Virus record (IMG/VR): IMGVR_UViG_3300037882_003336
Coordinates: 14,667 to 78,666 of that record
Strand: one strand, 5' to 3'
From: a virus
Length of the DNA stretch: 64,000 nucleotides
Of this stretch, positions 42,826 through 60,821 are shown one piece after another; the stretch's first letter is position 1; each line of letters starts with the position of its first letter. A program made the translations under genes and the position numbers. A model generated the notes under the pieces. It saw nothing but the letters and a program-made list of their open reading frames with translations, was not told the DNA's origin and searched no databases.

Positions 42826-43221
42826 ATGAAACTTCTCACTTTACTTGCACTTCTGTTCACCGCGCCACTTTTAGTAGCGAATGTCCCAGTGAAAGTTGCG
42901 TGGAACCCACCAGCCAATGAACTCGGCGTTGCCGGGTATATCGTGAGGTGGTACAGCAAGAATGGCAAAGAACTCGGCAAGGCCGATGTAGGCAACGTCC
43001 AGCGTTTCGAAAGCCCCGCGTTGTCAGCCGGTGACTACACTTTTTCCGTGACCGCCTATGGTCCAAGCCGTGTGGAGTCCAAAGCAGCCCTATTGAATGT
43101 CGCGATCAAAAAGATCAAACTGAAACGCTCAAAAGACCTGCGGACTTGGGAAGATGATAAGTGGTTCTATCGCATTACCACTGAGGACCAGGAGTTTTAT
43201 CGGCTCGATCTGCTGCCATGA
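42826..43221 (+). CDS. Secreted fibronectin type III-like protein
   Basis: Sec signal MKLLTLLALLFTAPLLVA; VAWNPP...VAGYIV...YTFSVTAY...ES FN3 pattern. Confidence 0.7.
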   Translation: MKLLTLLALLFTAPLLVANVPVKVAWNPPANELGVAGYIVRWYSKNGKELGKADVGNVQRFESPALSAGDYTFSVTAYGPSRVESKAALLNVAIKKIKLKRSKDLRTWEDDKWFYRITTEDQEFYRLDLLP

Positions 43222-43891
43222 TTGCCACTTTGAGCACTTCTGGAGAGACCAGCCCAGCCAAACAGCCACCCGTTTGGAAACCGTAGTCGTCGAACAAAAG
43301 AGACCCTGGATGCCAAGCCATGTTCGGTAGAGCCGCATAGGTTGGCACTATCTTGGCCAACTTGGACAGCACATTTCCCATTGAGAGGCTTTTCCTCGAA
43401 ACAACTGGTACCGTTTTACCATTAAAGGAAAGGTCAGGGCCAACGAAAGTCTTTGGTTCTCTGATGTACTTCAAAGCGAGATCATAGCACTCTCGCGACA
43501 TGGTGTACCCAGCGATGCTTGAGACTTCAGTCGTTTTCAATAACCGACTTCCAACCACCCCCGGTCGGCGGTGATGGAAGCACCCAAACAAAAACAGCAT
43601 GCAATCAGCGGGGAGTTCGATGTCTTCGATCGTTCCATACTCAAGGAGGTCGTCAAGCACGGTGATGCTATCAGCCTTCCACCTCTTAGCATGCCCAATC
43701 AGCACCCGGTGTGGCAGTATTCTGGCATACCCATCCTGTCCGTAACTGGACACCCCTTTCAGCTGCATGGCGTCTAACGCGGGGAATCGGGAAAACCCAA
43801 GGCTTGAAAGAGCTTCGGCGCTTCGGAGTCTGCTGGTGTAATTGGCACCAAGGTTGACGAAGAACCTGTCGGTGGTTGATAGGGACGTCAT
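43175..43891 (-). CDS. GT25-like glycosyltransferase (degenerate EDD), cassette 1
   Basis: FFVNL...R...SRFPALDA...H...VLDD...LPADC.LFLFG, paralogous to 54540..55319 (shared K.VPTYA..PNMAW; FD..G.Q). Confidence 0.6.
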   Translation of the reverse strand: MTSLSTTDRFFVNLGANYTSRLRSAEALSSLGFSRFPALDAMQLKGVSSYGQDGYARILPHRVLIGHAKRWKADSITVLDDLLEYGTIEDIELPADCMLFLFGCFHHRRPGVVGSRLLKTTEVSSIAGYTMSRECYDLALKYIREPKTFVGPDLSFNGKTVPVVSRKSLSMGNVLSKLAKIVPTYAALPNMAWHPGSLLFDDYGFQTGGCLAGLVSPEVLKVAIMAADRADKTPGPQW

Positions 43892-44691
43892 ACTTCAAGG
43901 ATATTGAAAAGGGACATGCTATTGTCGTAAAAGAAGGTGCTGGTATAAAGGCCAAGCGAAAACTGTAGTTTCCTGTCAGACCCCACTCCCATCGTGTGGA
44001 CTAGCGCCCCCTTGGTGTATTCCGACCAAGCTGGGTCACAGTGCAGTGGGAAGCGCACCTCACCCCTTTCGAAGTGTTTCGCGTTCCAGGGTAGCTTACC
44101 ATAATCGCAGTCCAGGATGAGTCTATTCCACGATGCTTGGTCGAAGCACCCTGGCATTTGGGTCACCTCTGCCGTGTCCCGCTCTTCCCAAGCCGTCATC
44201 ACATCCTGAAAAACGGAACCCCTTACGGCCAGCTGCCCACTGTTGATGCCCTTCCTTCGCATCTTCATCTCGTCATCCGTCAGGAACGCCGAGAACTGAC
44301 CCTTCCAGATGGGGAGGTTCTCGGTCTGGTATAAAACGTCCACTTCTCTTCTGACATCCAACAAGTGGTCGAGGTTCCTGAGCGCCATGCAGTCATCGTC
44401 CAAGAACATGATCATGTCGTACTGGGAGGCGTCGATGTACTCCCGGACGCGATACTTCCAGCACCAAGCGTCCTCAATGTGCTCCGATTCGGTCAGTCCT
44501 TTCCTTGGAACGAGCACCTCATTGATCCCAAGCTTATTCGGAAAAATCGGTTGTTCGTGGTTTCGGAACACCATGATGTCTCCACTCCATCTGGTCCTTA
44601 ACAAAGTTGCAATCAAGAATCGCACCAACTGTCGGTGGTACGGGTGGCCTTCCTGATCGAAAGCCACGGTGTATATGAGGTTCTTCCGCAT
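43888..44691 (-). CDS. GT-A fold glycosyltransferase (GT8-like, DxD), cassette 1
   Basis: YDMIMFLDDDC, INSG, DQASWN motifs; strongly similar to 53693..54535. Confidence 0.8.
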   Translation of the reverse strand: MRKNLIYTVAFDQEGHPYHRQLVRFLIATLLRTRWSGDIMVFRNHEQPIFPNKLGINEVLVPRKGLTESEHIEDAWCWKYRVREYIDASQYDMIMFLDDDCMALRNLDHLLDVRREVDVLYQTENLPIWKGQFSAFLTDDEMKMRRKGINSGQLAVRGSVFQDVMTAWEERDTAEVTQMPGCFDQASWNRLILDCDYGKLPWNAKHFERGEVRFPLHCDPAWSEYTKGALVHTMGVGSDRKLQFSLGLYTSTFFYDNSMSLFNILEV

Positions 44692-44743
44692 GTGGGTTCT
44701 AGTTATAATGGCAAGGTTACACCACCAAGAACACCAAGAAACC

Positions 44744-45250
44744 ATGAAAAACACCATTATCGCTAACACGGGACTCGTTATCCCACGCCGCCGATTCCTC
44801 CAGGGTGCTGGTATGGCAATGGCATCGGTCGCATTGGGCGGGATCGCATCCGCCACAGGCGGTTCCTCCGCTGGTTATGCTGGACACCCGCTCTGGTACA
44901 AACGGAACTCGTGGATCGAATGGAACAGCGACATCGTAGACCTCGACGATGCTGTCGCCAATGGAGAAGCGGCACTCGCCTTCTTCCAAGCCAACCCACC
45001 CGTGATGTCGTGGAAAGAAGAGGGGTGCCAACGGGTGTTTCACCCATTCGCCACTGGAGCTAGTTCCAGCCGCGTCATCTCCCAACCCGGCAGCATTTCG
45101 TACAGAGAGGTGGGCGGGTGCTACCAGTACGGCATTATGTTCAACGCCATCAAGTTCTTCAAGAAACCTGATGGCAGCTCTGGTAGTGAGCTGCCCCCAG
45201 GAGCGGACTTCGACACCCTGTTCAACAACTGGTCTACTTGGAACCAGTAA
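44744..45250 (+). CDS. Tat-signal protein 1 (unrecognised family)
   Basis: PRRRFLQ followed by a hydrophobic segment and ASA; WYKRNSW and AIKF...PDG motifs shared with two paralogs. Confidence 0.8.
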   Translation: MKNTIIANTGLVIPRRRFLQGAGMAMASVALGGIASATGGSSAGYAGHPLWYKRNSWIEWNSDIVDLDDAVANGEAALAFFQANPPVMSWKEEGCQRVFHPFATGASSSRVISQPGSISYREVGGCYQYGIMFNAIKFFKKPDGSSGSELPPGADFDTLFNNWSTWNQ

Positions 45251-46043
45251 ACAGGTGGTCGTATCTTCCTCCCGGTTTGTAGTTTAGATGCCAGTCTTGA
45301 CGGGTGATTGGGGGAGCGCTGGACTGGCTAGAGAAACGGTAAGCTTTGGCGGTTATTTCGTCGATCAGCCTCTGCCGTTTCTCGGGGTCTTTTTCCTTGG
45401 CCACTCTGTCGTTTGCATCAGCCTGTGGCGGTTCTTGAAGGATAGACAGAGAGTGCGACTTGGCTCCGTTTGGGTCATCGGGGTTGTCAACCTCGCTCAG
45501 GAACAGGCTGGTACGGTAATAGCCAAAGGTGCCAATCTCAACGGGATTCCTGCCGACCATCATCGCCATAATGTCGCCGCGTTCATTACCTAGGACGCCC
45601 GAGAACTCTTCCTTCATTTGGTCGAACCTCTCTTTCCCGCCGCTCTCCCAGTATGACGACACCACAATTGTCTCCCCGCGATCGTCCTGCACGGTGAACC
45701 GGTTTTTGAGTTCCAATTCCTTCATATCCGAGATCACCTTGGAGATTTCTGCCTCGCATCGTTCCTCTTCATCTGGTGAAAGCTTCAGGAAGTCCTTCAA
45801 GCTTTCGCTAAGTCCCCCATTCTTGTAACCGCCAATCAAGATTCGGAGCAGAGACGCCCGGTCCAGCTTCACGGAGGTGAGGTTCTCGGCGACCAGCTTT
45901 GGTTGAACCACTGGGGCGGGAGTCGGTACTGCCACTGACCGCACCACCTCTTTGAACACCACTTTTTCCTCTGGCTTCCGAAACAACAGGACCACCACCA
46001 ATACAGCCATCAACGTGCTGACTGCGATAAGGAGTTTCTTCAT
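45234..46043 (-). CDS. N-terminally membrane-anchored helical protein, cassette 1
   Basis: TM anchor, Pro-rich linker; paralog of 55408..56250 (FLK.SP.E, IVV.S.W..GGKE.F, LG.ER, IG.FG, RY.HLF). Confidence 0.75.
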   Translation of the reverse strand: MKKLLIAVSTLMAVLVVVLLFRKPEEKVVFKEVVRSVAVPTPAPVVQPKLVAENLTSVKLDRASLLRILIGGYKNGGLSESLKDFLKLSPDEEERCEAEISKVISDMKELELKNRFTVQDDRGETIVVSSYWESGGKERFDQMKEEFSGVLGNERGDIMAMMVGRNPVEIGTFGYYRTSLFLSEVDNPDDPNGAKSHSLSILQEPPQADANDRVAKEKDPEKRQRLIDEITAKAYRFSSQSSAPPITRQDWHLNYKPGGRYDHLFTGSK

Positions 46044-46061
46044 CAAGTGCCAGAAAACGCA

Positions 46062-46433
46062 CTAACGAGTAGGAGTCACCCACGCCGGACGCCCAGTAAA
46101 CCACCCGTGCCAAATCGCATGAGGCGGCTTGAGTTTGAAGCTCACCTCTTCGAAGATTTCGTCCAGCTGCTCACTGGATAATTTCTCGTCCACCGTCACG
46201 ATGTTCCAGTCGTGTAGGTAAGCGCCACCAAAATCGCGATGGTCGTTATCGCGTCCGAAGACGACTGCGTGACTCTCCCCATTTCCTTTGCGGAACTTGA
46301 ACCGGTTGTCGATCTTGATGAACAAAGTCTCAGGTCCAGTTTCTTCACCATTCCGAGTCGCCGTCTCAAACTTGCGTTTGAATTCTTCCCCGAACTCCCG
46401 CAACGATTCGGTGATTTTGGTGGCAACACTCAT
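46062..46433 (-). CDS. Hypothetical protein with leader MSVATKITES
   Basis: 123 aa; shared leader. Confidence 0.6.
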   Translation of the reverse strand: MSVATKITESLREFGEEFKRKFETATRNGEETGPETLFIKIDNRFKFRKGNGESHAVVFGRDNDHRDFGGAYLHDWNIVTVDEKLSSEQLDEIFEEVSFKLKPPHAIWHGWFTGRPAWVTPTR

Positions 46434-46561
46434 CTAAGAGACGTTTTCTTTTGAAGTTGACGCCCGGTCTGTAAGGATCATCACGAGGTCAATAACCACA
46501 CCTAACACAATTGGTGGAGTTATCGGATACCACCCTCGGGAACCCTTCACCGGGCGTCTGC

Positions 46562-47038
46562 TTATCTCGGTGACTGGGCGTTGACGCGATCGCGATACCG
46601 CTGAGCCCGTGTTGGTGCCCATCGGTAGGTTGAGTCGTCAACGAGATAACGGAGGGTAGACAACTCGTGGTTGGCGATGAGGGACAGCGCTGCCCCAGCG
46701 TGCTTGAAGTCCCCCGCCCGAATCAACTCCCCAATCTTGTTCAGGCTCGCCGTAATGTACTCGATGCCAAGTTCTACCAGTGCCGGTATTTCCTCGGGTT
46801 TGGCGCTCATGGCTTCCATGGCGCTTGGCCAGCCAGCCGGACGCACCACCGCGTTAAACACGGTATCCTGGTTGGTGGGCTCGCGGCGTCGCGTTTTTTG
46901 GGCAAGAATGGCCCCCTTCAGCTTGAACAGAGACGAAGCTGTCTCCTTCCACCTTTTTGCCTGCAAGTTGGAAATAGCCTCGTCAACCAAGCTAATGGCT
47001 TCGGAAGACTCAAGCATGATCCTTTCGTAAAGCTTCAT
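46562..47038 (-). CDS. Helical hypothetical protein with leader MKLYERIMLES
   Basis: 158 aa; shared leader. Confidence 0.6.
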   Translation of the reverse strand: MKLYERIMLESSEAISLVDEAISNLQAKRWKETASSLFKLKGAILAQKTRRREPTNQDTVFNAVVRPAGWPSAMEAMSAKPEEIPALVELGIEYITASLNKIGELIRAGDFKHAGAALSLIANHELSTLRYLVDDSTYRWAPTRAQRYRDRVNAQSPR

Positions 47039-47046
47039 GGGGATAG

Positions 47047-47298
47047 CTATGATTTGATGAGGACCGCGAGTTCGTTGAAATACTGCTCAACCTCGTTCAA
47101 CCCGGCGCTGTGGCCGTACTGCCAAGCCAACGTCCAGGTTTGATCGAACTTTTTGTCACGTGGAATCCCGTGTTCATCACTGAGGCGTTCCTTGAGCAGT
47201 TCGATGGTTGCTGCCTCTTGAGTAGCACGTTGGTGGCGGAGCCGTTCACGTTCCACCCGTTCTTCCTCAAGGCGTTTGGCGGAACCCCTGACTTTCAT
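47047..47298 (-). CDS. Small phage protein
   Basis: AWQYGHSAGLNEV..YF.EL motif. Confidence 0.6.
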   Translation of the reverse strand: MKVRGSAKRLEEERVERERLRHQRATQEAATIELLKERLSDEHGIPRDKKFDQTWTLAWQYGHSAGLNEVEQYFNELAVLIKS

Positions 47299-47350
47299 GG
47301 CTCCACAGTTGCACCCCTCAGGGTACGGGCAAGAGTAAGCGTGTATAGTG

Positions 47351-47503
47351 CTATTCGTTGTTGATTACGTCACCATCCGCCAGTTCCACCGAGCAGTCAA
47401 GGTGGAGACGAGCCCCGGCTTCTCCAAACTCGTCGGGTACGCTGGGTTGACCGTACTCGATGGGCTTGTCGCAATAGGCGCAGTGGTTAGATGGGTTTGT
47501 CAT
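47351..47503 (-). CDS. 50-aa Zn-finger microprotein (not in the ORF track)
   Basis: Manual translation MTNPSNHCAYCDKPIEYGQ...LHLDC...; ATGA overlap with the AAA ATPase stop. Confidence 0.65.
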   Translation of the reverse strand: MTNPSNHCAYCDKPIEYGQPSVPDEFGEAGARLHLDCSVELADGDVINNE

Positions 47504-49164
47504 CCGGGCAAGAATTGAAGGGCGTAAGAGAGGTTCTCGGTGGTGGCGGTATCGTTACCGAGACGTTTGGTGAGGCGCAGGAGATTCTTGATGGTACGTG
47601 GCGAAATCGGGTTCTTGTCGTTCCGCTTGTCGGCGTCCTTCTCGCTCTGTGGTCTGCTCTGGAATTCTTCGAACAGGATCTCCAGAAACTGGGTGGTTTC
47701 CTTGGCGGTGACCTTGAGGTCGAACAGGCCAGCGAACTGCTTGAGAATTTGGGCAGCGGCTTCCCGGTCCGGGTTGGAGTAGGTGAGTACCGCACTGCAC
47801 CGGCTCAGCACCGCGTCGTCGATCAGCAAATCCCGGTTGGTGGTCATGAAGATCACGCCATTGAAATACTCAAGGGTGCGGAGCAACGTTCCCACGATCG
47901 CGTTTTGTTCGATGTTGGTGCCGCGCTCATACACGTAGATGTCAACCTCATCGATCAGCAGGATGGCACCCCATCGCTGGGCGCGGGCGAACACTTCCTT
48001 AAGGTTCCCCTCCAGCGCTTTCGCGGTCACTCCGAGTTGGTCGGACTGCACCCGGTACAGTGGCACCCCGGCTCGCTCTGAAAACGCCTCAGCGGTCATA
48101 GTCTTTCCAGTACCTGGAGAACCCTTCGCCATGATGATCGTGCCACCACTCTTTCCCTTCACGAAGTCAGCCTTGAGGGTGTCAGGGTTGCTAACCAACA
48201 GGTTGACGAGGTCCTTGTGGTATTGTGGAATGATGAGGCGATTGATGAGAACCTCATCGTACTGATATGGCGAAACCCAAGTGCACGGCACCCACATGTG
48301 GTCGTGAGTTTCGAGGTTGAACACATACAGGTATGGATGGATCGGGATTTCGAACACGTCCACCTCGTCACCACCACGGAGGTTCGGTAGCTTCATCTTG
48401 CGCGACGACTCCCCTTTAGACCTGAACGCCGAGATGTCGTTGATGACTTTGAAGTTGCTGACTCCCGTCAGGTACTCGCGACTGGTGCTGGTATAACGCC
48501 AGTCCTCGTTACTTGGCAACCAACTGGTGGTGAGCAAAAACTGGGTGTTAACTTGAGCCATGTAGTCCTCCCACTGTTTCAGGGTCTGATGGTACTGCTG
48601 TACGATGTCTTCCCCCACAAACCCGTACCCGTGTTGGGCGAGAAGCGAAGAAACCGTCATACCACGGCGCTGCTTTTCCTGATTGAACAAGTCGTTGTCG
48701 TGGAATGTGATTCCGGTCGAGCGTTGTTCCCCCTTGGTCCAATAAACCAAGTTAACGCGCACGGAAGCCGGAACATCCTTTTGGGATGGCGTATAGACGG
48801 CTCCCGTCGTCAGATAAGGCAGCGGGATGCCGATGTCGTTGTTGTGCTGAAAGAGCCAACGGGTGGCGCTCTGGACCATGCAGGCTTGCGTGATCGCTTC
48901 AGCGAGTGCGTCCAGACGGGTCACGGGGGCATGCGGATCATCGACCGCCTTCCGGACCAAGGAGAGCTTCTGGAGCACTCCGTTGAACACCTGACTGTTC
49001 TTGGAGGCGAATGTGTGGACCGCACGGATGAACTCTCCGTCCACATGATAAGTCTCGAAGGTTGCTTCCTTCTCCCGGCTCCAGCCGGTTTCGGTCATCG
49101 CGGGGTGGTTGATGCCAGCGGCTTTGAGAGCTTCGTATTGTTCAGAAGAAAACGAGATAGTCAT
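47500..49164 (-). CDS. AAA+ ATPase
   Basis: Walker A GSPGTGKT, Walker B ILLIDE, sensor MTTNR, Arg finger LSRC. Confidence 0.9.
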   Translation of the reverse strand: MTISFSSEQYEALKAAGINHPAMTETGWSREKEATFETYHVDGEFIRAVHTFASKNSQVFNGVLQKLSLVRKAVDDPHAPVTRLDALAEAITQACMVQSATRWLFQHNNDIGIPLPYLTTGAVYTPSQKDVPASVRVNLVYWTKGEQRSTGITFHDNDLFNQEKQRRGMTVSSLLAQHGYGFVGEDIVQQYHQTLKQWEDYMAQVNTQFLLTTSWLPSNEDWRYTSTSREYLTGVSNFKVINDISAFRSKGESSRKMKLPNLRGGDEVDVFEIPIHPYLYVFNLETHDHMWVPCTWVSPYQYDEVLINRLIIPQYHKDLVNLLVSNPDTLKADFVKGKSGGTIIMAKGSPGTGKTMTAEAFSERAGVPLYRVQSDQLGVTAKALEGNLKEVFARAQRWGAILLIDEVDIYVYERGTNIEQNAIVGTLLRTLEYFNGVIFMTTNRDLLIDDAVLSRCSAVLTYSNPDREAAAQILKQFAGLFDLKVTAKETTQFLEILFEEFQSRPQSEKDADKRNDKNPISPRTIKNLLRLTKRLGNDTATTENLSYALQFLPG

Positions 49165-51891: not shown

Positions 51892-52272
51892 TCACTGACA
51901 AGAACCGCACGTCCATGGGGCTTTTTGCCCAAACACCGCCGAAGCTGCCCCACATACCACACAGTACGCCGGGGCGACACTAGACCGGAATCCCGGCTCC
52001 GGTTCGTTCGATCCGGAAATGTTGGCATCGGTGCGCACCGTCCACTTGTCCCAGTGTGGGTACAGGGTGTCTTGGTGGTGATCAGTGTCGAACACTACTG
52101 CCACCGAAATCTGATCGGAATTTGGCTCCACCATCATGCCGATCACATCGAACACGAATTCGTCTTCCAACACGATCTTGGCACCGATCATGATGGGGAC
52201 GCGAAAGCGCTCAATGCGATCCACGATGATTTCGTCGGGGGTGATGGATTCCAGTTTGGCGAGGTAGTTCAT
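51892..52272 (-). CDS. Hypothetical protein with C-terminal CxxC...CxxC
   Basis: YCVVCG...WTCGSC. Confidence 0.55.
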   Translation of the reverse strand: MNYLAKLESITPDEIIVDRIERFRVPIMIGAKIVLEDEFVFDVIGMMVEPNSDQISVAVVFDTDHHQDTLYPHWDKWTVRTDANISGSNEPEPGFRSSVAPAYCVVCGAASAVFGQKAPWTCGSCQ

Positions 52273-52330
52273 ACCCAAATACAGAAAGAGCGGGTCAGCA
52301 TTTGTGACCCGCTCTCAGTTTCGGACCTTA

Positions 52331-52900
52331 CTAGATGCCAGGAAGGTCGTCCCCGAACGTGTCATTCAGAGAGTCAATCAGGCCATCCGTACCACCCGTG
52401 TCCTCAATGTTCCATGCATCTGGAAACACTCCACCAAGATTCCCATCCGGGCCGAACAGGAACTTGATGGCTTTGACCCGGATCGTAAACGCATAGTAAG
52501 CGTCGTTGATGGGGTGAGCTGGAGCCGGTGGAATGTACTGTTTAGCCGTTACGGAATAACTGTTCAAGATGACGGTACTCACCGTGGTGTTGGCCAGAGA
52601 ATTCCTAACGGTCTTGCAGCCTTCATCTTTCCACAACTTGGCGCTCGCAACTCCACTCTCGTACAAGTTTGTCATGTACAGTTTTGCAGAATTTCCTGCG
52701 GCGGTCGCAGCCGCCAAGGTGCCAAAAGTACCCGATTTTGGGAGGTCCCATTCGTTGGAGAGATACCACTCTTGGGCACGAATGCTGGCCGAGTTTCCAG
52801 GTGCGGTCGCCATGACACGCCCGGAGCTTGCCAGTGCAGCAATCCCAGCGAGACCGGCGAATTTGCCGAGTGCTCCCCGGCGAGTTGTGTTTTCGTTCAT
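52331..52900 (-). CDS. Tat-signal protein 2
   Basis: TRRGALG plus hydrophobic segment; WYLSNEW; AIKFLFGPDG; LIDSL.D.FGD tail. Confidence 0.78.
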   Translation of the reverse strand: MNENTTRRGALGKFAGLAGIAALASSGRVMATAPGNSASIRAQEWYLSNEWDLPKSGTFGTLAAATAAGNSAKLYMTNLYESGVASAKLWKDEGCKTVRNSLANTTVSTVILNSYSVTAKQYIPPAPAHPINDAYYAFTIRVKAIKFLFGPDGNLGGVFPDAWNIEDTGGTDGLIDSLNDTFGDDLPGI

Positions 52901-52936: not shown

Positions 52937-53554
52937 TTACTGAGGCGGGACATCCCCGAAGAGATCCGTGAGCGAGTCAATTAAGGTGGGGTCACCATCA
53001 TTGGACTCGACGTTCCAAGCGGGCGGGAAACCACCGTTAGGACCCGTACCATCCGGCAGCACCGCAAACTTGATTGCGACGACACGTGCGCCACCCTTGT
53101 GACCCATGCCGTCGACGAAAGCTGTGGAGGCGACATTTTGAGTGACGATGCCAGGGAAGGCATTGATGATTCGACCGGAATAAGTGTCCGAAATGTTTGA
53201 CTTCTTGACTTCCGTGAACTCCGGGCCGGAGTCAAGCCACAAGCCTGGGGTAACTGCTGCCTTTTGATCGTACCACGCCTGCAACGCGGCCTGTTTGGCG
53301 GCAGCAGCCTGTTGAGCGTCGCTAAGGAGATCATAGATCGATCCGGTCCAAACTGTCCACGTGTTTTTCCAGTACCAAACTTTTGGCGCGTTGCTTCCAG
53401 ATGGTGCTGGTCCAGCAGCGAGCAAGTTTGATGCGATACCAGTAACCCCAAAGGCGGCGACTACACCCGCCATCGAGAGTCCGCTACTAAGGAGACCGCG
53501 CCGGGAAATGCCGGGTGTGACAATAACGCCGGGTTCGTTGATAGGATTATTCAT
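52937..53554 (-). CDS. Tat-signal protein 3
   Basis: SRRGLLS plus hydrophobic segment; WYWKNTW; AIKFAVLPDG; LIDSL.D.FGD tail; start MNNPINE at 53554. Confidence 0.8.
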   Translation of the reverse strand: MNNPINEPGVIVTPGISRRGLLSSGLSMAGVVAAFGVTGIASNLLAAGPAPSGSNAPKVWYWKNTWTVWTGSIYDLLSDAQQAAAAKQAALQAWYDQKAAVTPGLWLDSGPEFTEVKKSNISDTYSGRIINAFPGIVTQNVASTAFVDGMGHKGGARVVAIKFAVLPDGTGPNGGFPPAWNVESNDGDPTLIDSLTDLFGDVPPQ

Positions 53555-53692
53555 ATTTGGATTTGTTTCGTTTCTTTTAACCCTTCGCCGAATTGGGCTT
53601 GGGATCGGAAAAACTAGAACGTTGGGTTTGGTGGTAGGCGTTAAACGCCAATTCTGGTTAATGCAGCCGTTATGGTCTTTCTCATTTCCAGT

Positions 53693-54535
53693 ATGACACA
53701 ACCGAGAATTCGAAACCCGTTCATCCCATATCAAAGGAACCTTGCTTACACGGTTGCCTTTGACCCTCCGGGATCAACGTTCCACCGCACGATGGCCAAA
53801 ATTTTGGCCTCGTCTTTGTTAAAAACTAAGTTCTCTGGAGATATTATGGTGTTTCGAAATACACCCCAGCCGCTCTTTCAAGTTCCACGGGTCGGGCTTA
53901 TCGAAGTCTATGTGAAAGACGACGGACATTCGGTTTCCAACTATCACGAAACCGCATGGTGTCAAAAGTACCTGATGAGCGAATTCATTGATGCCAGCGC
54001 TTATGACAGGATAATGTTTATAGACGCAGACTGTGTGGCACTCCGCAATATTGATCACCTACTGGAGGGGGAGTGGGATCTCGCTTATCAGACTGAACCG
54101 GGAACCGTCATTACCACCGATCAGTTTTCGATGTTCCTGACTGATGAGGAAATGGAAACCCAAACCCGTCCTGGGATCAACAGTGGGCACTTGGCAGTGC
54201 GAGGCAGCGTTTACTATGAAGTAATGAACAAGTGGCGGGAAATCGACTCTGGGCCAGCGTTGCAAAGGAAGGGTTGTATGGATCAAGCCTCGTGGAATCG
54301 CATCATACTGGACTCTGATTCTGGGAAACTTCCGTGGAAGGCTCGGCATTTCGAACGAAGTGAGATCATGTTTCCGATATACTTGGACCCCCAGTGGTGG
54401 CGATATAGTAAGTGCGCCCTTATTCATGCGATTGGTCAAAACCCGTCATCCAAGATTCGTTTCATGACCAGCGCTTTCCTTGGTGCCTTCTACGCAGACG
54501 ATACAGCCACTCTGATCAACCTCCTAGAAATTTGA
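53693..54535 (+). CDS. GT-A fold glycosyltransferase (GT8-like, DxD), cassette 2
   Basis: YDRIMFIDADC, INSG, DQASWN. Confidence 0.8.
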   Translation: MTQPRIRNPFIPYQRNLAYTVAFDPPGSTFHRTMAKILASSLLKTKFSGDIMVFRNTPQPLFQVPRVGLIEVYVKDDGHSVSNYHETAWCQKYLMSEFIDASAYDRIMFIDADCVALRNIDHLLEGEWDLAYQTEPGTVITTDQFSMFLTDEEMETQTRPGINSGHLAVRGSVYYEVMNKWREIDSGPALQRKGCMDQASWNRIILDSDSGKLPWKARHFERSEIMFPIYLDPQWWRYSKCALIHAIGQNPSSKIRFMTSAFLGAFYADDTATLINLLEI

Positions 54536-54539: not shown

Positions 54540-55319
54540 ATGCACACCATCACAATCAACGATCTAGCTTCATCCAAGTTTTGCACCAATATCAGCGCCA
54601 ATCGAGATGACCGGCTCTTAATGGCAGATCGGTTATTAGAGGTCGGGTTGAGAGACGTGGACCGGGTTACCATTCTAAACGAAGAATTGGGTTCGCGGAA
54701 ACACAATTACCCAACCCCGTTTGCTTATCTGCAGGCTCTTGGGCACCGGACTGCAATCCGAATGGCTCAGCAAGATGGATCGCAGTCCGCGATGATCCTA
54801 AGTGACCGAGTAGTCTTCAACCCCTTGGTGAACGCCTTCTTGAACGAAGAGGTGGGAAGTACGCTCGAACTTCCAGACGATTGGGGTGTACTATACCTTG
54901 GGTGCGTCCACGCTAAGCCCCCAGTGGTCGTGAATTCGTGGGTACTCCGGGTTACCAAAGGATACGGATCGTTTGCATATGTGATTCGGGACACCGCCTA
55001 CAGGGCTTTCATGAAGATTGCTAACTCCCCAGACCCGACCATATTTCCAATTCACGGGGATAAGAAGATGCAGCTATCTGCTGCCACTTCAAGACGCGGC
55101 GTTGACCATGTGATGGCGGAACTTCAAAAGGTGGTCCCGACTTATGCGCTTTGGCCAAACATGGCTTGGGTCGCACCAAGTGATAACGATCAAGGACCAT
55201 TCGACGAATTCGGTAGGCAACGGGGATTTTCGTCTGCTGTTAACACTTTGTGTCGAGAGTGGAACCCATGGTGGGGTAAGTTAGAAGACGAGTCCGAAGT
55301 CTTCCAGCCAACCTCTTAG
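54540..55319 (+). CDS. GT25-like glycosyltransferase (degenerate EDD), cassette 2
   Basis: GH..AI..A...AMILSDRVVF...LPDDWGVLYLG...AYVI...DH pattern. Confidence 0.65.
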   Translation: MHTITINDLASSKFCTNISANRDDRLLMADRLLEVGLRDVDRVTILNEELGSRKHNYPTPFAYLQALGHRTAIRMAQQDGSQSAMILSDRVVFNPLVNAFLNEEVGSTLELPDDWGVLYLGCVHAKPPVVVNSWVLRVTKGYGSFAYVIRDTAYRAFMKIANSPDPTIFPIHGDKKMQLSAATSRRGVDHVMAELQKVVPTYALWPNMAWVAPSDNDQGPFDEFGRQRGFSSAVNTLCREWNPWWGKLEDESEVFQPTS

Positions 55320-55332
55320 CTAGAGTAAAACA

Positions 55333-55356
55333 AGTCCCCAACGTAAATTGGGGGCT
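55333..55356. terminator. Hairpin between convergent genes, possible terminator
   Basis: AGTCCCCAA-cgtaaa-TTGGGGGCT stem; only a weak U-tract. Confidence 0.35.
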
Positions 55357-55407
55357 CATTGGGCTTGACGTTCTGAACTGCCACTCACCATAGTGGCTCT
55401 GACCACC

Positions 55408-56250
55408 CTATTCCGGTTTGTCTGGTGCTTCCAGCCCCTGGAACAAGTGATGATACCGGTTGACAATGAGTGGAGTGTTTGGACTCATAATATAGTCAAT
55501 GGGCTCAATGGGAGCTTGGTTTTTTATTTGGTCCTTTTTGATTTGATAAGCTTCTAGCATCGCGACCCGCTTATCCGGATCAGGCTCTTGCAACGCGGCC
55601 TTCCGAATAGCCCTGGATGGGTCCACGTGCTGAATGTGAACTTCAGTATCAGGATTTCCATTTTCGTCTCTCATAGACCCATCCTGGACGAAGAATATAG
55701 TATCGAAGAACCCGAAATTCCCAATGTTGGTAGCACTGGTTTCTATGCCAACCATCATAAGGCCACTTCGTTCGTCCCCCAGGATATTCTTGAAAGAATC
55801 CCGCATCTTTTCGAATTCTTCCTTCCCCCCTGTATCCCAAAATGACTTCACAACGATCGAATCACCATCCTTATTGCTAATCAGCTTACGATTTTGGACT
55901 TCCATGGGTTTGAGGACTTCGATTGTCTTTTTGATGCTGGCCTCAACTGCCTCCTTCTCAGCTGGACTCATCTTCAGGAAGTTAGCAACACTCTCGGTGA
56001 TGTTTCCAGACTCGTCGTACGCCATCATCATGATGCGCTTCATGGCGTCATGATCGATCTTGACAGCGGTCAGTTTGTCATCTTTGACAAGCTGCTTGTT
56101 CGTGACCTTCGGCGGAGCCAGAGCGGGGGCTCGAACTGTCTTATAAATGTACTCTGGTGGTGGCGGTTTGACCGGAGTTGCAACGTCGATGACGACGTAA
56201 ACAACGAGTGACAAAATGCTGACAGAGGCTAAAATGCGGTCTCGATTCAT
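55408..56250 (-). CDS. N-terminally membrane-anchored helical protein, cassette 2
   Basis: MNRDRILASVSILSLVVYVVI TM; paralog of 45234..46043. Confidence 0.75.
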   Translation of the reverse strand: MNRDRILASVSILSLVVYVVIDVATPVKPPPPEYIYKTVRAPALAPPKVTNKQLVKDDKLTAVKIDHDAMKRIMMMAYDESGNITESVANFLKMSPAEKEAVEASIKKTIEVLKPMEVQNRKLISNKDGDSIVVKSFWDTGGKEEFEKMRDSFKNILGDERSGLMMVGIETSATNIGNFGFFDTIFFVQDGSMRDENGNPDTEVHIQHVDPSRAIRKAALQEPDPDKRVAMLEAYQIKKDQIKNQAPIEPIDYIMSPNTPLIVNRYHHLFQGLEAPDKPE

Positions 56251-56260
56251 AGTGGTAAGG

Positions 56261-56512
56261 TTATTTTCGGTTGAGAGCGATGACCCCTTCGATGTAACCA
56301 ACAGCTTCTGCAACTGTCTTTAGGTCTTCTGCTTCCTCATCCGGGATCGAAATAGTAAACTCCACCTCCACTGCCACCATGAGTTCCAAGCAGTCGATAG
56401 AGTCAAAGCCCATCTTAGCGAACGTGGCTTCAGGTTTGATCACGCCCTTGCCCTGATCTATTACGGAGTTAATACACACCGCGAGCCTTTCGATAGTTGG
56501 TTTAGTTGCCAT
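56261..56512 (-). CDS. acpP: Acyl carrier protein
   Basis: MGFDSIDCLELMVAVEVEFTISIPDEEAEDLKTV, canonical ACP with phosphopantetheine Ser. Confidence 0.92.
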   Translation of the reverse strand: MATKPTIERLAVCINSVIDQGKGVIKPEATFAKMGFDSIDCLELMVAVEVEFTISIPDEEAEDLKTVAEAVGYIEGVIALNRK

Positions 56513-57314
56513 GAGGTGATCGGTGCATTGTGACCCAAGCGTCCACCGGACTGAGGGTCGGTTGAGTTTCCTTGATCATGCGCTGCACGAAAAGACTGGA
56601 GATGGCGGCTAAGTCCTGATAGGTTGCGACGCCCACCAGATTGGCACGGGTTTCCCGGTTGATCCAGTTCTCACGAATGGACGGGTTGGAAAAGGCATTC
56701 CGGACTTCGGCATTCGGGAAGCAGAGCATACGGTCGATCTTTTTGGCAATCCGCCCGGTGTCCGTCACCACCTCGCTTGCGTAGTCCATGAGCAGGGTGG
56801 CTTCCTTGCAAAGACGTGCCCATCCGAGACCGGCTGCATCGTACGGCACCTCAAAGTCCCAGCCACACCCCGGACCGCCCCAAAAGTCAGCGGTGAAGAA
56901 CGACGCCATATCGGAGAGCCAAGGCGATCCGTTCTTGATGTCGAGGAACGTGGGAGCCTTGAAGGTGTCACCATGCACCAGATGCTTCATACCGTTCTCG
57001 CGACACCACTTGATGACGGACGCCTGAGACGCATAGATCGGGTCCTCGGCATTCTCAGCTTCATCAGCCGCCATCTTGTAAACCGTGTTGAGAATCTGGC
57101 GCGACATCGCCCCGATAACCGTCAGGAACACCGTGTCCACGCTCACCGAGATGGGCTTTTTGTCTTGGTGGGACAGGTCCGGGTTGTGATATCGACCACC
57201 GCCCCCACACTCCCACCATAACGCGTACATGGTGTAAAAGTCCACGATCCTCGTCTGGAACGAGACGGGCTCTGGATAGCAGTGTGATAGGGTGGCCAGA
57301 TTTGGTGGTTGCAT
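56502..57314 (-). CDS. Hypothetical protein, distant paralog of the N-terminal domain of 39797..42808
   Basis: DFY..YAL, G.GWA.L, IDR motifs in the same order. Confidence 0.55.
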   Translation of the reverse strand: MQPPNLATLSHCYPEPVSFQTRIVDFYTMYALWWECGGGGRYHNPDLSHQDKKPISVSVDTVFLTVIGAMSRQILNTVYKMAADEAENAEDPIYASQASVIKWCRENGMKHLVHGDTFKAPTFLDIKNGSPWLSDMASFFTADFWGGPGCGWDFEVPYDAAGLGWARLCKEATLLMDYASEVVTDTGRIAKKIDRMLCFPNAEVRNAFSNPSIRENWINRETRANLVGVATYQDLAAISSLFVQRMIKETQPTLSPVDAWVTMHRSPHGN

Positions 57315-57329
57315 AAAGTATAAAAATCG

Positions 57330-57530
57330 TTACCAGGACTCGTAGTCGGTTAGTTCCAGTTCGTCCCCGTATACCGTGTCAAGGACCTTCACGGTGTTCC
57401 CGAGACTCGTTGGTGTGAAGACGAATGAGTATCTACCGCCTATCGCGGTGTTTGGTGCTTTTTTCCGAGTGGCTCGCCACTCTTGGAACTGCGTTTCCTG
57501 CGTTTCTGTCAGTGAGAAGGTGTGGGGCAT
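57330..57530 (-). CDS. Small phage protein
   Basis: AIGGRYSFVFTPTSLG...LELTDYESW motif of a kind seen in large phages. Confidence 0.7.
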   Translation of the reverse strand: MPHTFSLTETQETQFQEWRATRKKAPNTAIGGRYSFVFTPTSLGNTVKVLDTVYGDELELTDYESW

Positions 57531-57613
57531 GGGGTGCCGGGTGGTACCATCATGGTCGAGAAAGGTGTCGACTGGACAGTATCAGGCCATGATGATAGCG
57601 AACCACTGTGTTT

Positions 57614-57826
57614 TCATAGGAGTTTGATGAACCCATACCGGTGCATCAGGATCAGCGTTTGCGTGAGTTCCTCAACGTCTTTCGGGTCTTTCGGGTCTTT
57701 GAAACCGGTGGCTTCCGTCGCCAAGAATCCAGCAGCTTTTTTGGCGCTGTGCAACTCTTCGTGCCTCCGGCATTCACGTGGGGTCTCGAATTCCTGCCCG
57801 TCTTTGGATCTGTAGATCGTGGTCAT
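57614..57826 (-). CDS. Small hypothetical protein
   Basis: YRSKDGQEFET..EC..HE motif. Confidence 0.6.
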   Translation of the reverse strand: MTTIYRSKDGQEFETPRECRRHEELHSAKKAAGFLATEATGFKDPKDPKDVEELTQTLILMHRYGFIKLL

Positions 57827-57829
57827 GTG

Positions 57830-58192
57830 TTAGTGTTTTTGGTGAAGTTTGCAGCCTTGGACGACGCACCATCCGGTGCCCACTTGCCCGCAAGACCTGT
57901 CGAGGAACACCTTGATTTCGATGTCGGCCTGCCGGTGGCAACGTCGCCCCGAGTTACTGAGAAACTGGCATCGCCCAAACACCGGTTTAGGGACAGCTTT
58001 GGACAACGTGCCCTTCCCACCACAGACGTGGCAAATGTCGGCGTCTGGAAATCCCAGATAGCGCTTCTGACCGATACCCCGGCACTGCCCGCACGGCTTG
58101 CGGCGACCGAGTTTTGGTCGGTCGGGGCAGTCACGAGGGTGGTGACCCCGGTCCTGACAGCGTGCACACCAATCGCCGAAAATGGAGCCCAT
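57830..58192 (-). CDS. Cys-rich Zn-binding protein (Zn knuckle plus CxxCxGxG repeats)
   Basis: CARCQDRGHHPRDC; CGQCRGIG; CHVCGGKG. Confidence 0.6.
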   Translation of the reverse strand: MGSIFGDWCARCQDRGHHPRDCPDRPKLGRRKPCGQCRGIGQKRYLGFPDADICHVCGGKGTLSKAVPKPVFGRCQFLSNSGRRCHRQADIEIKVFLDRSCGQVGTGWCVVQGCKLHQKH

Positions 58193-58196
58193 AGAG

Positions 58197-58499
58197 TTAG
58201 TCGTTGAAGATCAGGAGTTCGGTGAAGAGGCTACGCTCGCGGGGATCAGCGGGGATGAAACGATCGAAAAGCTTGTCCCCGTCATTGTCGCGTTGCTCCC
58301 CAGTGTGAACGAGAACGATTTCGCGTCCCGTACGCTCACTGACCAACACAAAACCAGAGTCGAGGCTGTCCGGATAGGGCTGCATGTAGGTGAGGTCACG
58401 CAGTTCGCTCCAGTCAGCCGAAAAGGACTTGGTCGAGGCGCTGTAGGTGAAGCGCTCGGTGCTGAGGTGAGTAGTCGGGATGACGGTGGCGTTGCTCAT
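58197..58499 (-). CDS. Hypothetical early protein
   Basis: Start MSNATV fixed by promoter P6. Confidence 0.65.
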   Translation of the reverse strand: MSNATVIPTTHLSTERFTYSASTKSFSADWSELRDLTYMQPYPDSLDSGFVLVSERTGREIVLVHTGEQRDNDGDKLFDRFIPADPRERSLFTELLIFND

Positions 58500-58505
58500 G
58501 CCGAT

Positions 58506-58534
58506 ATTATACCACATCTTAGGACTTTTGTCAA
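58506..58534 (-). promoter_or_regulatory. Sigma70-type promoter P6 (leaderless)
   Basis: TTGACA-17-TATAAT, extended TG, ATG 6 nt downstream. Confidence 0.9.
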
Positions 58535-58575
58535 GTCCCCCACTGTGTGGACCCTAGGTGCTTAGCTATCGGGGT

Positions 58576-59442
58576 ATGTCAACCACACTCCAAACTCTCA
58601 TCGGGTTGTCGAATGGCAAAAAGCCTGAAGACTTCAAGAAGCTTCCACTCATGAAACGCGGTGCCAAGGGACCGCTGGTCGGGCAACTCCAGTCGATGCT
58701 CGCCTCGCAGGGTGCGTACCGACATCGGATTGACGAAGACTTCGGCAAACACACCGACGGCGCAGTCCGTTACTTCCAGTCAACCCACGTGGACTCCAAG
58801 GGTGAGTACCTGAAGGTTGATGGCGAGGTGGGATTGGAAACATGGTGGGCACTCTTCAACCCGTCCGGAGACGCGCAGGATCAGAAGGTGGTGCCAAGCG
58901 GTACGAATCGTGGTCTCAGCAAAACCCGTCAGGACGTGATCAACACGGGTCTCAAGGAGTTCAGGATTCCGGTATTTGAGGTGCCGGATGGGTCGAACTG
59001 GGGACCCCGCGTCGCCGAGTATCTCGGGCTTCTCGGGATTGGGCCGAACCCATGGTGTGCCGCTTACATCCAGGCGGTGCTGTACTGGAGCACCGGCAGC
59101 TTCCTGAACGGTAAGAGCGCCCACGTGTGGACGATTTGGCGTCAAGCTCAGGCGAAGGGGCAAGCGTTCAAACGCGACAAGCGGAATCCGGTTCCCGGAG
59201 ATCTGTTCGTGCAACTCCATGCCAACGGTACTGGTCACATCGGGTTCGTGTACCGGGTCAGCGAAGATGGGCTGTGGGTGTCAACGCTGGAAGGCAACAC
59301 CGGTAACCGGGTGCGGATCGGCAAACGCCGGGTCGCCACGATCGCCGGGTGGATTGTCCCGTACGGTGACGCCGATGTGGTATACAACTTCAAGAAGGGA
59401 CTAGCGGACGGTGTTGATACGGGAAACCTTGGTGACCGGTGA
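58576..59442 (+). CDS. Endolysin: peptidoglycan-binding domain plus CHAP domain
   Basis: GAKGPLV..LQ..L...FG..T..AV..FQ...VDG.VG..TW; PWCAAY...PGD...GHIG...EGNT. Confidence 0.9.
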   Translation: MSTTLQTLIGLSNGKKPEDFKKLPLMKRGAKGPLVGQLQSMLASQGAYRHRIDEDFGKHTDGAVRYFQSTHVDSKGEYLKVDGEVGLETWWALFNPSGDAQDQKVVPSGTNRGLSKTRQDVINTGLKEFRIPVFEVPDGSNWGPRVAEYLGLLGIGPNPWCAAYIQAVLYWSTGSFLNGKSAHVWTIWRQAQAKGQAFKRDKRNPVPGDLFVQLHANGTGHIGFVYRVSEDGLWVSTLEGNTGNRVRIGKRRVATIAGWIVPYGDADVVYNFKKGLADGVDTGNLGDR

Positions 59443-59841
59443 TCGGTGCCAAGACCCACGAAGGTCGTAGCGACCTTTTTTGGCGTTGGCGTTGAAGCCA
59501 AAGCGGCGGTAGAAACGCCTTAGCCGCTCCGTGGAACTGGTGGTCTTCCAGGTTTTGTCACGGTCGCCCGGTGATCCAAGCGACATTGTGATCGTGATGC
59601 CGTATCGGTCGGCGAACCGACAGAGTTTCTCTAGCCATGCGGTTCCGGTGCCGGATGGAGCGTCACGCTTGGTGCGGATGGAATCGAGGTGAATGAACGG
59701 CTTGCCATCGTGCCAATACGGATTGATGCGAGTCTCCAGACCCCCCTCGGCGTTGTCACGCTGAAGCTCCATAAGCTCCAAGGCAGCTGCCTCAGGAAGC
59801 CCCTGTTGCTCTGATTCCAGTATCCGTGCCAGCAGACTCAC
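59401..59841 (-). CDS. GNAT-fold acetyltransferase-like protein with leader MSLLARILES
   Basis: HLDSI...GTGT..LEKL..FAD...RLRRFYRRFGF. Confidence 0.65.
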   Translation of the reverse strand: MSLLARILESEQQGLPEAAALELMELQRDNAEGGLETRINPYWHDGKPFIHLDSIRTKRDAPSGTGTAWLEKLCRFADRYGITITMSLGSPGDRDKTWKTTSSTERLRRFYRRFGFNANAKKGRYDLRGSWHRSPVTKVSRINTVR

Positions 59842-59849
59842 CTACAAAC

Positions 59850-60170
59850 CTAGTTCGACTTCTGGATGCCCTCCAAGACCGTGGTGGGCTGTCCACGTCT
59901 GGCTTCCGATAGCTCCTGTTTGAGACGGCTCACTTCATGCCTGAGCGCGGTGGCGCGGCGATCGGCGTCCAGAAGCTCCCGGCGCGAATAAAAGATCGCG
60001 TCTTCCGTTGGCATCAGTGTTTGTCCGTCTGCGAACTCATACACCTCACCAGCCTTGAGTTTGATGTGGGCGGGATCGTTCCACGCGGCCTTGGGCAACA
60101 CCGAGTTGTGTGGTATCCCCATGCAGGACACCAAGATAAGGGAGAGCGCGGACAATAAAGCTGTTTTCAT
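59850..60170 (-). CDS. Lipoprotein (possible o-spanin)
   Basis: MKTALLSALSLILVSC lipobox; near the endolysin. Confidence 0.6.
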   Translation of the reverse strand: MKTALLSALSLILVSCMGIPHNSVLPKAAWNDPAHIKLKAGEVYEFADGQTLMPTEDAIFYSRRELLDADRRATALRHEVSRLKQELSEARRGQPTTVLEGIQKSN

Positions 60171-60523
60171 ACGGGTTCGGCGCGGCGACTTGGGGTGAGA
60201 TCCTGAATGAGGTCGAAGAGGATCTGGCGATGATTCATGAGTTCAGGAATCTCCACGTCATAGACACGACGGATTCTGGCAGTGAAGTCAATGCCGGTCG
60301 CCCCGCGTCCAGCCCTCAGCATTTCTGCCTCTTCCTCCAGTTTCTTGATCGCCGCATCCGTGGCGTGATGGCTATTGATCGCGGTCATCAGCGAATCAAG
60401 CATCGCCCGTCTTGCATCATCCTCCTTGGCACGCACAAACCGCTCCGCGATCGTGAGAGACTTGGTGAGCAGGAACTTGATTCCCGGCCAGAGTGGGCTG
60501 TTAGCGTCGAGTTCCTTACTCAT
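60167..60523 (-). CDS. Coiled-coil hypothetical protein (possible spanin partner)
   Basis: Helical, coupled to the lipoprotein gene. Confidence 0.5.
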   Translation of the reverse strand: MSKELDANSPLWPGIKFLLTKSLTIAERFVRAKEDDARRAMLDSLMTAINSHHATDAAIKKLEEEAEMLRAGRGATGIDFTARIRRVYDVEIPELMNHRQILFDLIQDLTPSRRAEPV

Positions 60524-60635
60524 GGCTCCCTATCCCAGCAGTTACCCACAGTGCTAAGAACACCACGACAAGGAACGCTACACCTGCCGCGACAGCAGTG
60601 AGGCCGATCTTGGTCAAGGACAGGGTGGCGATCAT
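60516..60635 (-). CDS. 39-aa single-TM microprotein (not in the ORF track)
   Basis: MIATLSLTKIGLTAVAAGVAFLVVVFLALWVTAGIGSHE*; exactly fills the gap after tatA. Confidence 0.55.
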   Translation of the reverse strand: MIATLSLTKIGLTAVAAGVAFLVVVFLALWVTAGIGSHE

Positions 60636-60638
60636 AAG

Positions 60639-60821
60639 TCACTTCACCTCGTTCTTGATTTCGTCCTCGAACTCCTGTTTGGCCTTCTTGAATTCACCCA
60701 TACTCTTACCCATACCACGGGCGAGTTCAGGAAGCTTCTTGGCTCCAAACATCAGAAGGAGCAGCAAGACGACGATGGCTATTTCCGGGCCACCAAGGGC
60801 AAAAGCGAGTAGTGGTATCAT
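60639..60821 (-). CDS. tatA: Twin-arginine translocase subunit TatA/E
   Basis: GGPEIAIVVLLLLLMFGAKKLPELARGMGKSMGEFKKA, canonical TatA TM, FG hinge and amphipathic helix. Confidence 0.95.
   Translation of the reverse strand: MIPLLAFALGGPEIAIVVLLLLLMFGAKKLPELARGMGKSMGEFKKAKQEFEDEIKNEVK

Follow-up and report, generated by a model that had tools for sequence, protein, structure and literature searches.

Why would a tailed phage carry, in two copies, genes for exported proteins, soluble sugar enzymes and a membrane-anchored protein, and in addition a gene for a component of the twin-arginine translocation (Tat) machinery? This question is raised by the IMG/VR virus contig IMGVR_UViG_3300037882_003336 (78.7 kb, CheckV completeness ~39%), of which we analysed a stretch of 64,000 nucleotides (bases 14667–78666 of the record, here "the window"). 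Four gene types make up the two cassettes: A, GT25-like proteins; B, transferases resembling the glycosyltransferase (GT) families GT8 and GT77; C, small proteins with a Tat-type leader; and D, membrane-anchored proteins. They belong to an accessory module of Verrucomicrobiales chromosomes, from which the phage copies derive. As to function, the best reading, which we hold tentatively, is that B and A glycosylate C before its export by Tat, as part of a host-captured and duplicated envelope module. All nine cassette genes, and tatA, were present as open reading frames (ORFs) at the positions given in a preliminary description of the window. The cassette features are:

A1, 43175–43891 (-): GT25-like protein, 238 aa, its start overlapping the B1 stop by 4 nt
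B1, 43888–44691 (-): GT-A fold transferase of the GT8/GT77-like clan, 267 aa, without signal peptide
C1, 44744–45250 (+): small protein with a Tat-type leader (PRRRFLQGAGMAMASVALGG), divergent from B1
D1, 45234–46046 (-): N-terminally membrane-anchored protein, convergent with C1, aligned with host members of the D family
Hairpin, 52286–52316 (-): terminator-like, a stem of 12 pairs with a T run behind it, directly downstream of C2a
C2a, 52331–52900 (-): Tat-leader protein (TRRGALGKFAGLAGIAALASSGR) with a basic residue in the c-region
C2b, 52937–53554 (-): Tat-leader protein (SRRGLLSSGLSMAGVVAAFG), divergent from B2
B2, 53672–54535 (+): GT8/GT77-like GT-A transferase, 287 aa
A2, 54540–55319 (+): GT25-like protein, 259 aa
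D2, 55408–56250 (-): membrane-anchored paralogue of D1, 280 aa from MNRDR

A duplicated module of host descent

The four gene types occur twice as true paralogue pairs, as had been proposed from the window alone. B1 and B2 shared 51% identity (E 5e-99), D1 and D2 32% (E 4e-45), and A1 and A2 27% (E 2e-18), and the alignment of C1, C2a and C2b had 23–33% identity with 24 invariant columns. The gene order was A1(-) B1(-) C1(+) D1(-) in cassette 1, with a divergent B1–C1 gap of only 52 bp, and C2a(-) C2b(-) B2(+) A2(+) D2(-) in cassette 2, with 4 nt between B2 and A2 and with two C genes for one D. The divergent junction of C and B and the B-to-A order were preserved in both cassettes, with the block inverted, again as described before. 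The neighbour of D differed between them, being C in cassette 1 and A in cassette 2.

In the maximum-likelihood tree of B, the phage copies B1 and B2 were sisters (support 100/92), placed beside the host-like locus L001 (97/92) and nested within host sequences. The best host match of A2 was in the same locus, with 33% identity. Because B1 and B2 are sisters inside the host clade, the simplest history indicated by the tree is that the module was captured once, from a host of the Verrucomicrobiales, and was duplicated long ago within the phage lineage. By the B tree and the host loci it is a host accessory module and no invention of the phage. L001, the host-like module nearest to the phage copies, was flanked by IstB-like and IS66-type transposition genes (1–1297, 6552–7139). 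No relatives of TatA or of the D or B families were found in 50,697 phage records or in IMG/VR, at the sensitivity of tblastn and pattern scans, beyond distant GT fragments, and a DNA-level search of cassette 1 against phage records matched nothing.

The B alignment, used to scan genomes and metagenomes, gave 40 and 36 loci, respectively, nearly all from Verrucomicrobiota (Verrucomicrobiales, Chthoniobacter, Prosthecobacter, Haloferula and Akkermansia-like bins), in which ORFs were called with our own heuristics. The host B loci were flanked by chromosomal genes, such as htpG, pheS and metK. B was present in 25 of the 38 genomes of one family, in 1–12 copies each, some of them broken; among 151 genomes sampled across the phylum, only the seed genome had it. 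In the host module D and C share a strand, and B and A run divergently from them on the opposite one, so that the order reads D, C, B, A. The module is often multi-copy and sometimes flanked by insertion sequences (IS), and one of its carriers is in culture, Haloferula chungangensis CCUG 61920 (locus L037).

The association of the four types was seen repeatedly. B was adjacent to A in many host loci, and in the loci fetched by B an ORF of 125–280 aa with a Tat leader lay time and again upstream of and divergent from B. In at least eight loci C was followed, at a distance of -3 to 170 nt, by an ORF of 233–317 aa with a transmembrane anchor. Over the loci fetched by B, the anchored ORF downstream of C on the same strand measured 233–390 aa and often shared a few bases with C (for example L001, L010, L022, L027, L050, L052/53, L054, L061 and L062). 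Within 2.5 kb of B, a regular expression for Tat leaders matched 13 times in 217 kb, with 8 matches judged real, and missed at least 5 further leaders that were found by eye. In the far flanks it matched four times in 248 kb; one or two of these were real, and one adjoined a weaker B gene. An iterated hidden Markov model (HMM) of D1 and D2 recognized the anchored gene in nine of these B loci and nowhere at a distance from B, D-family membership being defined by iterated HMMs over a small database.

Seeding with the D profile in five host genomes led to new loci without B, each with a Tat-leader gene directly upstream of D. The sugar genes beside these loci encoded a UDP-galactopyranose mutase (Glf), a GT25 fusion and an FkbM methyltransferase, and the enzymes neighbouring host C–D varied altogether between GT8-like, GT25, GT14, Glf, FUT8-like, FkbM and methyltransferases. 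C–D is the constant core of the module and the surrounding sugar enzymes vary, because the D-seeded loci keep C–D while the sugar genes change. The same order in many chromosomes, fetched via B alone or via D alone, supports one functional neighbourhood of the four gene types and not a chance cluster. The co-occurrence outside this phage, on which the preliminary description had made its proposal depend, was therefore found: the same module recurs in many Verrucomicrobiales chromosomes.

Leader proteins, anchored partner and sugar enzymes

Each phage C protein had a twin-arginine motif (PRRRFLQ in C1, SRRGLL in C2b, TRRGAL in C2a), followed by at least 15 uncharged, Ala/Gly/Ser-rich residues. 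In a regular-expression search over the ORFs of the 78.7 kb contig, these three were the only proteins with a credible twin-arginine leader. Two further matches were discarded, one as an antisense artefact of C1 and the other for want of a hydrophobic h-region. C1 scored below the cut-off with PF10518 (18.0 vs 22.7 bits) and TIGR01409 (15.4 vs 16.7), C2a and C2b matched neither model, and the host C of L010 passed TIGR01409 (17.8 vs 16.7). Tat leaders classically avoid the Sec route by means of a basic c-region residue, and the host c-region HGF[RK]VEVLA, with its basic residue, fits a Tat leader.

Leader and cargo are polymorphic in the hosts. In the loci fetched by B, the leaders are of the type SLWNSxLGRRxFLKKTGAATVATxxAxHGF(R/K)VEVLA. 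Among the 24 host C proteins found, a 42-residue leader window had a mean identity of 56%, and the mature parts had a mean identity of 24% (median 17%). Several near-identical leaders were joined to unrelated mature sequences, and 0 of the 24 proteins had a Pfam domain. In many members a T-G or T-P follows just after the predicted cleavage site, the phage C proteins having ATGG or ATAPG there; as a guess, this segment is a candidate acceptor site. One truncated C gene lies before the D gene of L052 (7770–7952, -), its leader cut off after GRR, which shows that C genes decay and are turned over in the host loci.

D starts with a short basic N-terminus and one transmembrane helix, followed by a linker rich in Pro and an alpha/beta domain with R-Y-x-H-L at its end. 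This domain should face the periplasm, because of the positive-inside rule. D had no match in Pfam, NCBIfam or PADLOC, and C had none beyond the sub-cut-off leader score of C1. PADLOC recognized no defence system, except for one BrxB match at chance level (E 0.026). This agrees with the earlier statement that no described system has this architecture: no known family or defence system in these three collections matches C or D. When C2b was searched with phmmer against 1.84 billion representatives, only C2b itself and C2a were returned. Structure prediction was little more telling. The AlphaFold2 model of C had a predicted local distance difference test (pLDDT) score of 53, and its best PDB match (Z 5.5) was uninformative; for the model of D (pLDDT 67), Foldseek gave nothing at E up to 0.001 and the best VIA-align match had Z 5.1. 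In the ESM Atlas, D fell only into unnamed Verrucomicrobial clusters. A look-alike there (TM-score 0.52) was fused to extracytoplasmic function (ECF) sigma domains, a lead that was not confirmed, as the host matches of the D profile in the five host genomes were all ORFs of 127–290 aa. The anchored proteins of L001 and L052 had no detectable homology to D, except for the C-terminal RY-x-HL motif in L001.

The suggestion that D docks C was followed by co-folding residues 50–270 of D1 with mature C1. The median score was 0.38, against 0.00 for the best control, which was graded as weak support for docking. In the calibration of the tool, the mark was reached by 58 of the 80 solved complexes and by 2 of the 110 mismatched pairs, and scores of up to 0.60, as for D1:C1, comprised only 7 of the 80 solved complexes and both mismatches that passed. 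The partner pLDDT was 66–72, and at least 76% of contacts were common to the runs. The docking claim is thus weakly favoured by the predicted complex.

The fast change of C and D recalls polymorphic toxin–immunity cassettes. Like these, the module joins a conserved part for trafficking to a C-terminal part that varies, and has a variable gene immediately downstream. C could then be a secreted effector of polymorphic type or a toxin resembling bacteriocins, with D as its cognate immunity protein or receptor; the GTs would modify the effector, as in glycocins, or be bystanders, and the phage would carry the pairs for conflict with phages or cells. The conserved leader on unrelated mature parts (56% vs 24% identity), the translational coupling of the fast-evolving downstream gene to C (-3 to 170 nt), the multi-copy, patchy distribution, the IS elements flanking L001 and the D1:C1 co-fold (0.38 vs 0.00 for the best control) all point in this direction. 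Unlike in known cassettes of this kind, the trafficking part is a Tat leader and sugar enzymes are always nearby. Further, no toxin or immunity domain was found with Pfam, NCBIfam or PADLOC, neither C (best Z 5.5) nor D (best Z 5.1) had a fold match, a route across the outer membrane is not evident, and in the phage the C–D coupling is broken, cassette 2 having two C genes and one D. We consider such a toxin–immunity role quite improbable.

B1 scored 16.3 bits with the Pfam GT8 family (PF01501, cut-off 24.3) and B2 21.0 bits with PF03407, just under the cut-off of 22. Among 20 B-family members five touched PF01501 and two PF03407 (best E 1.9e-7), and the DxD motif (D118, D120) and 14 other columns were invariant in 20 B homologues, including B1 and B2. 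The earlier label of B as GT8-like therefore stands on the invariant DxD and the near-cut-off scores and is weaker than stated, both scores being below the cut-off. The best PDB matches of the B profile were the Skp1 alpha-galactosyltransferase (alpha-GalT, 5.5e-4) and glycogenin (1.4e-3), weak and limited to the DxD region; both are protein-glycosylating GT8 enzymes. LgtC or RfaI/J were not matched in the PDB at E up to 1. B2 had 57 homologues in a large protein collection, nearly all unnamed.

A1 and A2 had no Pfam match at E up to 0.1. Their joint HMM found host GT25 proteins adjoining B (E 1e-37 to 1e-8), and these host homologues passed the Pfam GT25 model (PF01755, 28.4–31.6 bits vs the cut-off of 24). 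The GT25-like label thus holds through the host homologues and, for A1 and A2 themselves, is less firm than first written, direct Pfam support being absent. In the family alignment an (F/L)EDD motif and a downstream His were kept in 23 of 23 host A proteins, with FEDD in all but three. Host A was often fused to a GT14 Branch or a methyltransferase domain.

Since GT8 and GT25 are also the families of the outer-core enzymes of lipooligosaccharide (LOS) and lipopolysaccharide (LPS), namely LgtC, RfaI/J, LgtB and Lic2, the sugar enzymes could instead extend a lipid-linked envelope glycan, such as a LOS-type core, at the cytoplasmic face and leave C untouched. C–D would be a periplasmic pair that reads or trims the glycan or is co-regulated with it, and the phage would use the module for receptor masking, as in serotype conversion. 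The GT loci are small, variable and multi-copy and contain pseudogene fragments, which would fit variation of surface glycans; a whole B clade lacks C–D, and the enzymes next to C–D vary (Glf, FUT8-like, FkbM, GT14), as in glycan-diversity islands. The likeness to LOS/LPS outer-core loci (GT8 in LgtC and RfaI/J; GT25 in LgtB, Lic2 and Lex2B) and to phage serotype-conversion operons such as gtrABC extends to the same GT families, small variable loci and a surface change carried by phages. Unlike the module, those loci have no Tat-leader protein or anchored partner, and B is only borderline GT8. A lipid-linked glycan would leave the regular coupling of a Tat-leader gene and an anchored partner to soluble GTs without a reason. 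The B profile matched protein-glycosylating GT8 enzymes and no LgtC or RfaI/J, if weakly and in the DxD region only, and neither initiating transferase nor flippase nor ligase was seen in the modules read. Among the nine cassette proteins no Pfam match to a GtrA-like flippase or a GtrB-like bactoprenol GT was found, and none was polytopic. Overall, a lipid-linked glycan as the target seems to us rather unlikely. A reading as DNA-modifying glycosyltransferases was rejected, as the homologues are chromosomal host genes beside exported proteins.

Tandem B–B loci (L011–L014, L016, L018, L021, L032, L056, L064) were convergent with a cyclase-type protein of ~1600–1670 aa, which opens with the class III cyclase-like motif MFTDIEGSV. 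In L007, where two B genes occur together with single A and D genes and a further anchored protein, a membrane-anchored subtilase (10884–12557, -; Peptidase_S8, E 1e-37) abuts a B gene.

The phage setting and tatA

By its gene content the contig is a fragment of a large tailed phage, because tail, virion, topoisomerase, HNH endonuclease and endolysin genes are encoded. In the window we recognized a tail tube protein, a tail-fibre-like protein, a topoisomerase, an HNH endonuclease, a PurZ-like synthetase and a PG_binding+CHAP endolysin. Three large minus-strand proteins of 635, 720 and 2692 aa (1443–3350, 4632–6794, 6802–14880) share a C-terminal virion-protein domain (phrog_10356). The adenylosuccinate-synthetase-like gene (36480–37907, -) matched a PHROG named for the PurZ-type enzyme (E 2.6e-35).

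Immediately before cassette 1 lies a gene for a small Sec-signal protein with FN3-like sequence and no Pfam match (42787–43221, +). Upstream of D2, by 10 nt and on the same strand, an acyl-carrier-protein-like gene of 83 aa was annotated (56261–56512, -; Pfam PP-binding, E 4.9e-10), preceded by a 270 aa gene of no assigned function (56502–57314); no acyl-carrier-protein-like gene was seen in the host modules. Two small genes flanking the cassettes (46062–46433, - and 51892–52278, -) were considered as a fifth paralogue pair. Both carry an AVVF-x-D-x-H-x-D...W..T motif, and their BLASTP match (E 0.27) was not significant. Sigma-70 promoters were not enriched in the cassette region.

The Tat component of the phage is encoded 4.4 kb from cassette 2:

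tatA, 60639–60821 (-): 60 aa, with a transmembrane helix, an FG hinge and an amphipathic helix (GGPEIAIVVLLLLLMFGAKKLPELARGMGKSMGEFKKA)

It had been described as a canonical tatA, and it is a clear member of TatA_B_E (PF02416; 66.8 bits vs the cut-off of 21, E 9.5e-19). The phage TatA was 65–69% identical to TatA of four Verrucomicrobial genomes, with 26 columns invariant with them, and this identity points to a host-derived tatA from the same host group as the module. The minus-strand run of tatA includes a 392 aa gene of no assigned function, a 118 aa gene and a lipoprotein gene, the product of which (59850–60170, -; MKTALLSALSLILVSC...) has a lipoprotein signal and a C-terminal coiled coil. 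Nearby is a PG_binding_1+CHAP endolysin without signal peptide (58558–59442, +), so this neighbourhood may be a lysis region. A lysis-related or a general role of tatA is possible, and its link to the cassettes is what we infer from the Tat leaders.

TatA is the Tat component that is required in excess, and the three C genes together with a host-type tatA fit a need for more of it. Extra TatA paralogues are described for bacteria, namely TatE, TatAd/TatAy and the two TatA of Campylobacter jejuni (PMC4148689, PMC5777986). The phage tatA would be like them in being a second gene of the TatA type, providing more capacity or a preference for certain substrates, and is unlike them in being encoded by a virus. 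A 2026 Tat review mentions no phage-encoded TatA.

Proposed glycosylation ahead of export

A folded, glycosylated protein cannot use Sec and can use Tat. Where proteins are glycosylated in the cytoplasm, the usual sign is a soluble GT whose gene adjoins that of an exported protein; HMW1C, TibC, SunS and the islands of serine-rich repeat proteins (SRRP) are examples. A lipid-linked pathway normally brings an initiating transferase, flippase or ligase. Glycosylation of C is ranked first because the soluble GTs adjoin the gene of an exported protein, no lipid-pathway genes were seen in the modules read and Tat takes folded glycoproteins. In this sequence of events, the soluble cytoplasmic enzymes B and A would attach a glycan to folded C, and the Tat route would be used because it passes folded, bulky substrates. 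D would be anchored in the inner membrane and reach with its domain into the periplasm, where glycosylated C would act together with it. Altered by C and D, the envelope of the infected cell might, for example, exclude other phages, and the phage tatA would raise the Tat capacity for the three C proteins. We infer the glycosylation of C, its Tat dependence, its binding to D and the role in infection from the arrangement and kind of these genes.

A more specific form of this proposal can be drawn, which is speculative and rather unlikely. The conserved leader of the small, polymorphic C proteins would be both export signal and docking site for the neighbouring soluble GTs, a cognate anchored periplasmic partner would receive the glycoprotein, and a lytic jumbo phage would have captured and duplicated the module and would force export with its own TatA.

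Several observations weigh against glycosylation of C by B and A. C–D pairs also occur without B, and in L051 and L055 D lies directly against B, with no C between. A second, well-supported B clade comprises tandem B–B genes in Chthoniobacter and Verrucomicrobiaceae with housekeeping neighbours and no C–D; because of this clade, B does not require C everywhere. In the phage, the C-to-D operon coupling is broken in both cassettes, the C leaders lack the SLWNS n-region of the hosts, and profile–profile comparison of phage and host C gave homology over the leader only. No tatC or tatB was found on the contig in hand (39% of the genome), and tatA itself lies 4.4 kb from the cassettes, among a lipoprotein gene and the CHAP endolysin. 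Finally, A1 has LDD and Gly at the positions of FEDD and His in the hosts, and A2 has LSDR in place of FEDD and Phe in place of His. To judge from these residues, the phage A copies may be inactive or repurposed, and the working GT pair assumed in the preliminary description is doubtful, because both copies lost the FEDD and His motifs.

The same losses could mean that there is no integrated phage pathway at all. The cassettes would then be decaying passengers, and tatA would serve otherwise, for example in membrane permeabilisation at lysis or in general support of host export. The missing motifs of the A copies, the gene order rearranged relative to the host, the position of tatA beside a lipoprotein gene and near the CHAP endolysin, and the lack of tatC on the contig agree with this. 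Decay is at odds with the nine cassette ORFs, all still intact although the paralogues have diverged to between 51% (B) and 23% (C) identity, and with B1 and B2, which keep every invariant residue. The C leaders are kept as well, a strong terminator ends the C2b–C2a unit, and TatA retains the full family signature. We regard mere passengers as very improbable.

Glycosylation of C ahead of export has its closest known logic, by analogy, in the accessory Sec (SecA2/SecY2) islands, which glycosylate and export the serine-rich repeat adhesins of Gram-positive cocci. Like in these islands, soluble cytoplasmic GTs (there including GT8 members) are encoded beside the exported protein, and there are extra copies of export machinery. 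Unlike there, the route is putatively Tat, the cargo is a small protein not rich in Ser, tatA is the only duplicated component, an anchored partner D is present, the host is Gram-negative and the setting a phage; glycosylation here is deduced from the genes. The pairs HMW1C/HMW1, TibC/TibA, Aah/AIDA-I and SunS/sublancin are similar in that the GT gene adjoins the substrate gene and that modification there precedes export. They differ in their GTs, which belong to GT41, the heptosyltransferases and GT2, and in their export, which goes by Sec and two-partner secretion (TPS), autotransporter or ATP-binding cassette (ABC) exporter, in no case by Tat. Of enzyme families, GT8/GT77 and GT25 come closest, and the closest evolutionary pattern is a polymorphic leader–cargo family with a cognate downstream gene. 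None of these, neither the accessory Sec islands nor the GT8/GT77 and GT25 families nor the leader–cargo pattern, fits the module as membership.

We know of no natural bacterial glycoprotein for which modification with sugar in the cytoplasm and subsequent export by Tat have been shown, and no example was found in the literature searched. The phage cassettes themselves we rate as a variant of host-derived envelope or glycosylation modules carried by phages, a known kind. What is new is a widespread, multi-copy and fast-evolving Verrucomicrobiales module with defined parts, of which C and D are without a family. Among auxiliary genes, a TatA encoded by a virus would be of a new kind, acting on the export machinery of the host. 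The cultured carrier Haloferula chungangensis CCUG 61920 makes the question testable. If C is indeed glycosylated before export, it would link two fields, give a compact toolkit for producing periplasmic glycoproteins, and explain why the C proteins use Tat.

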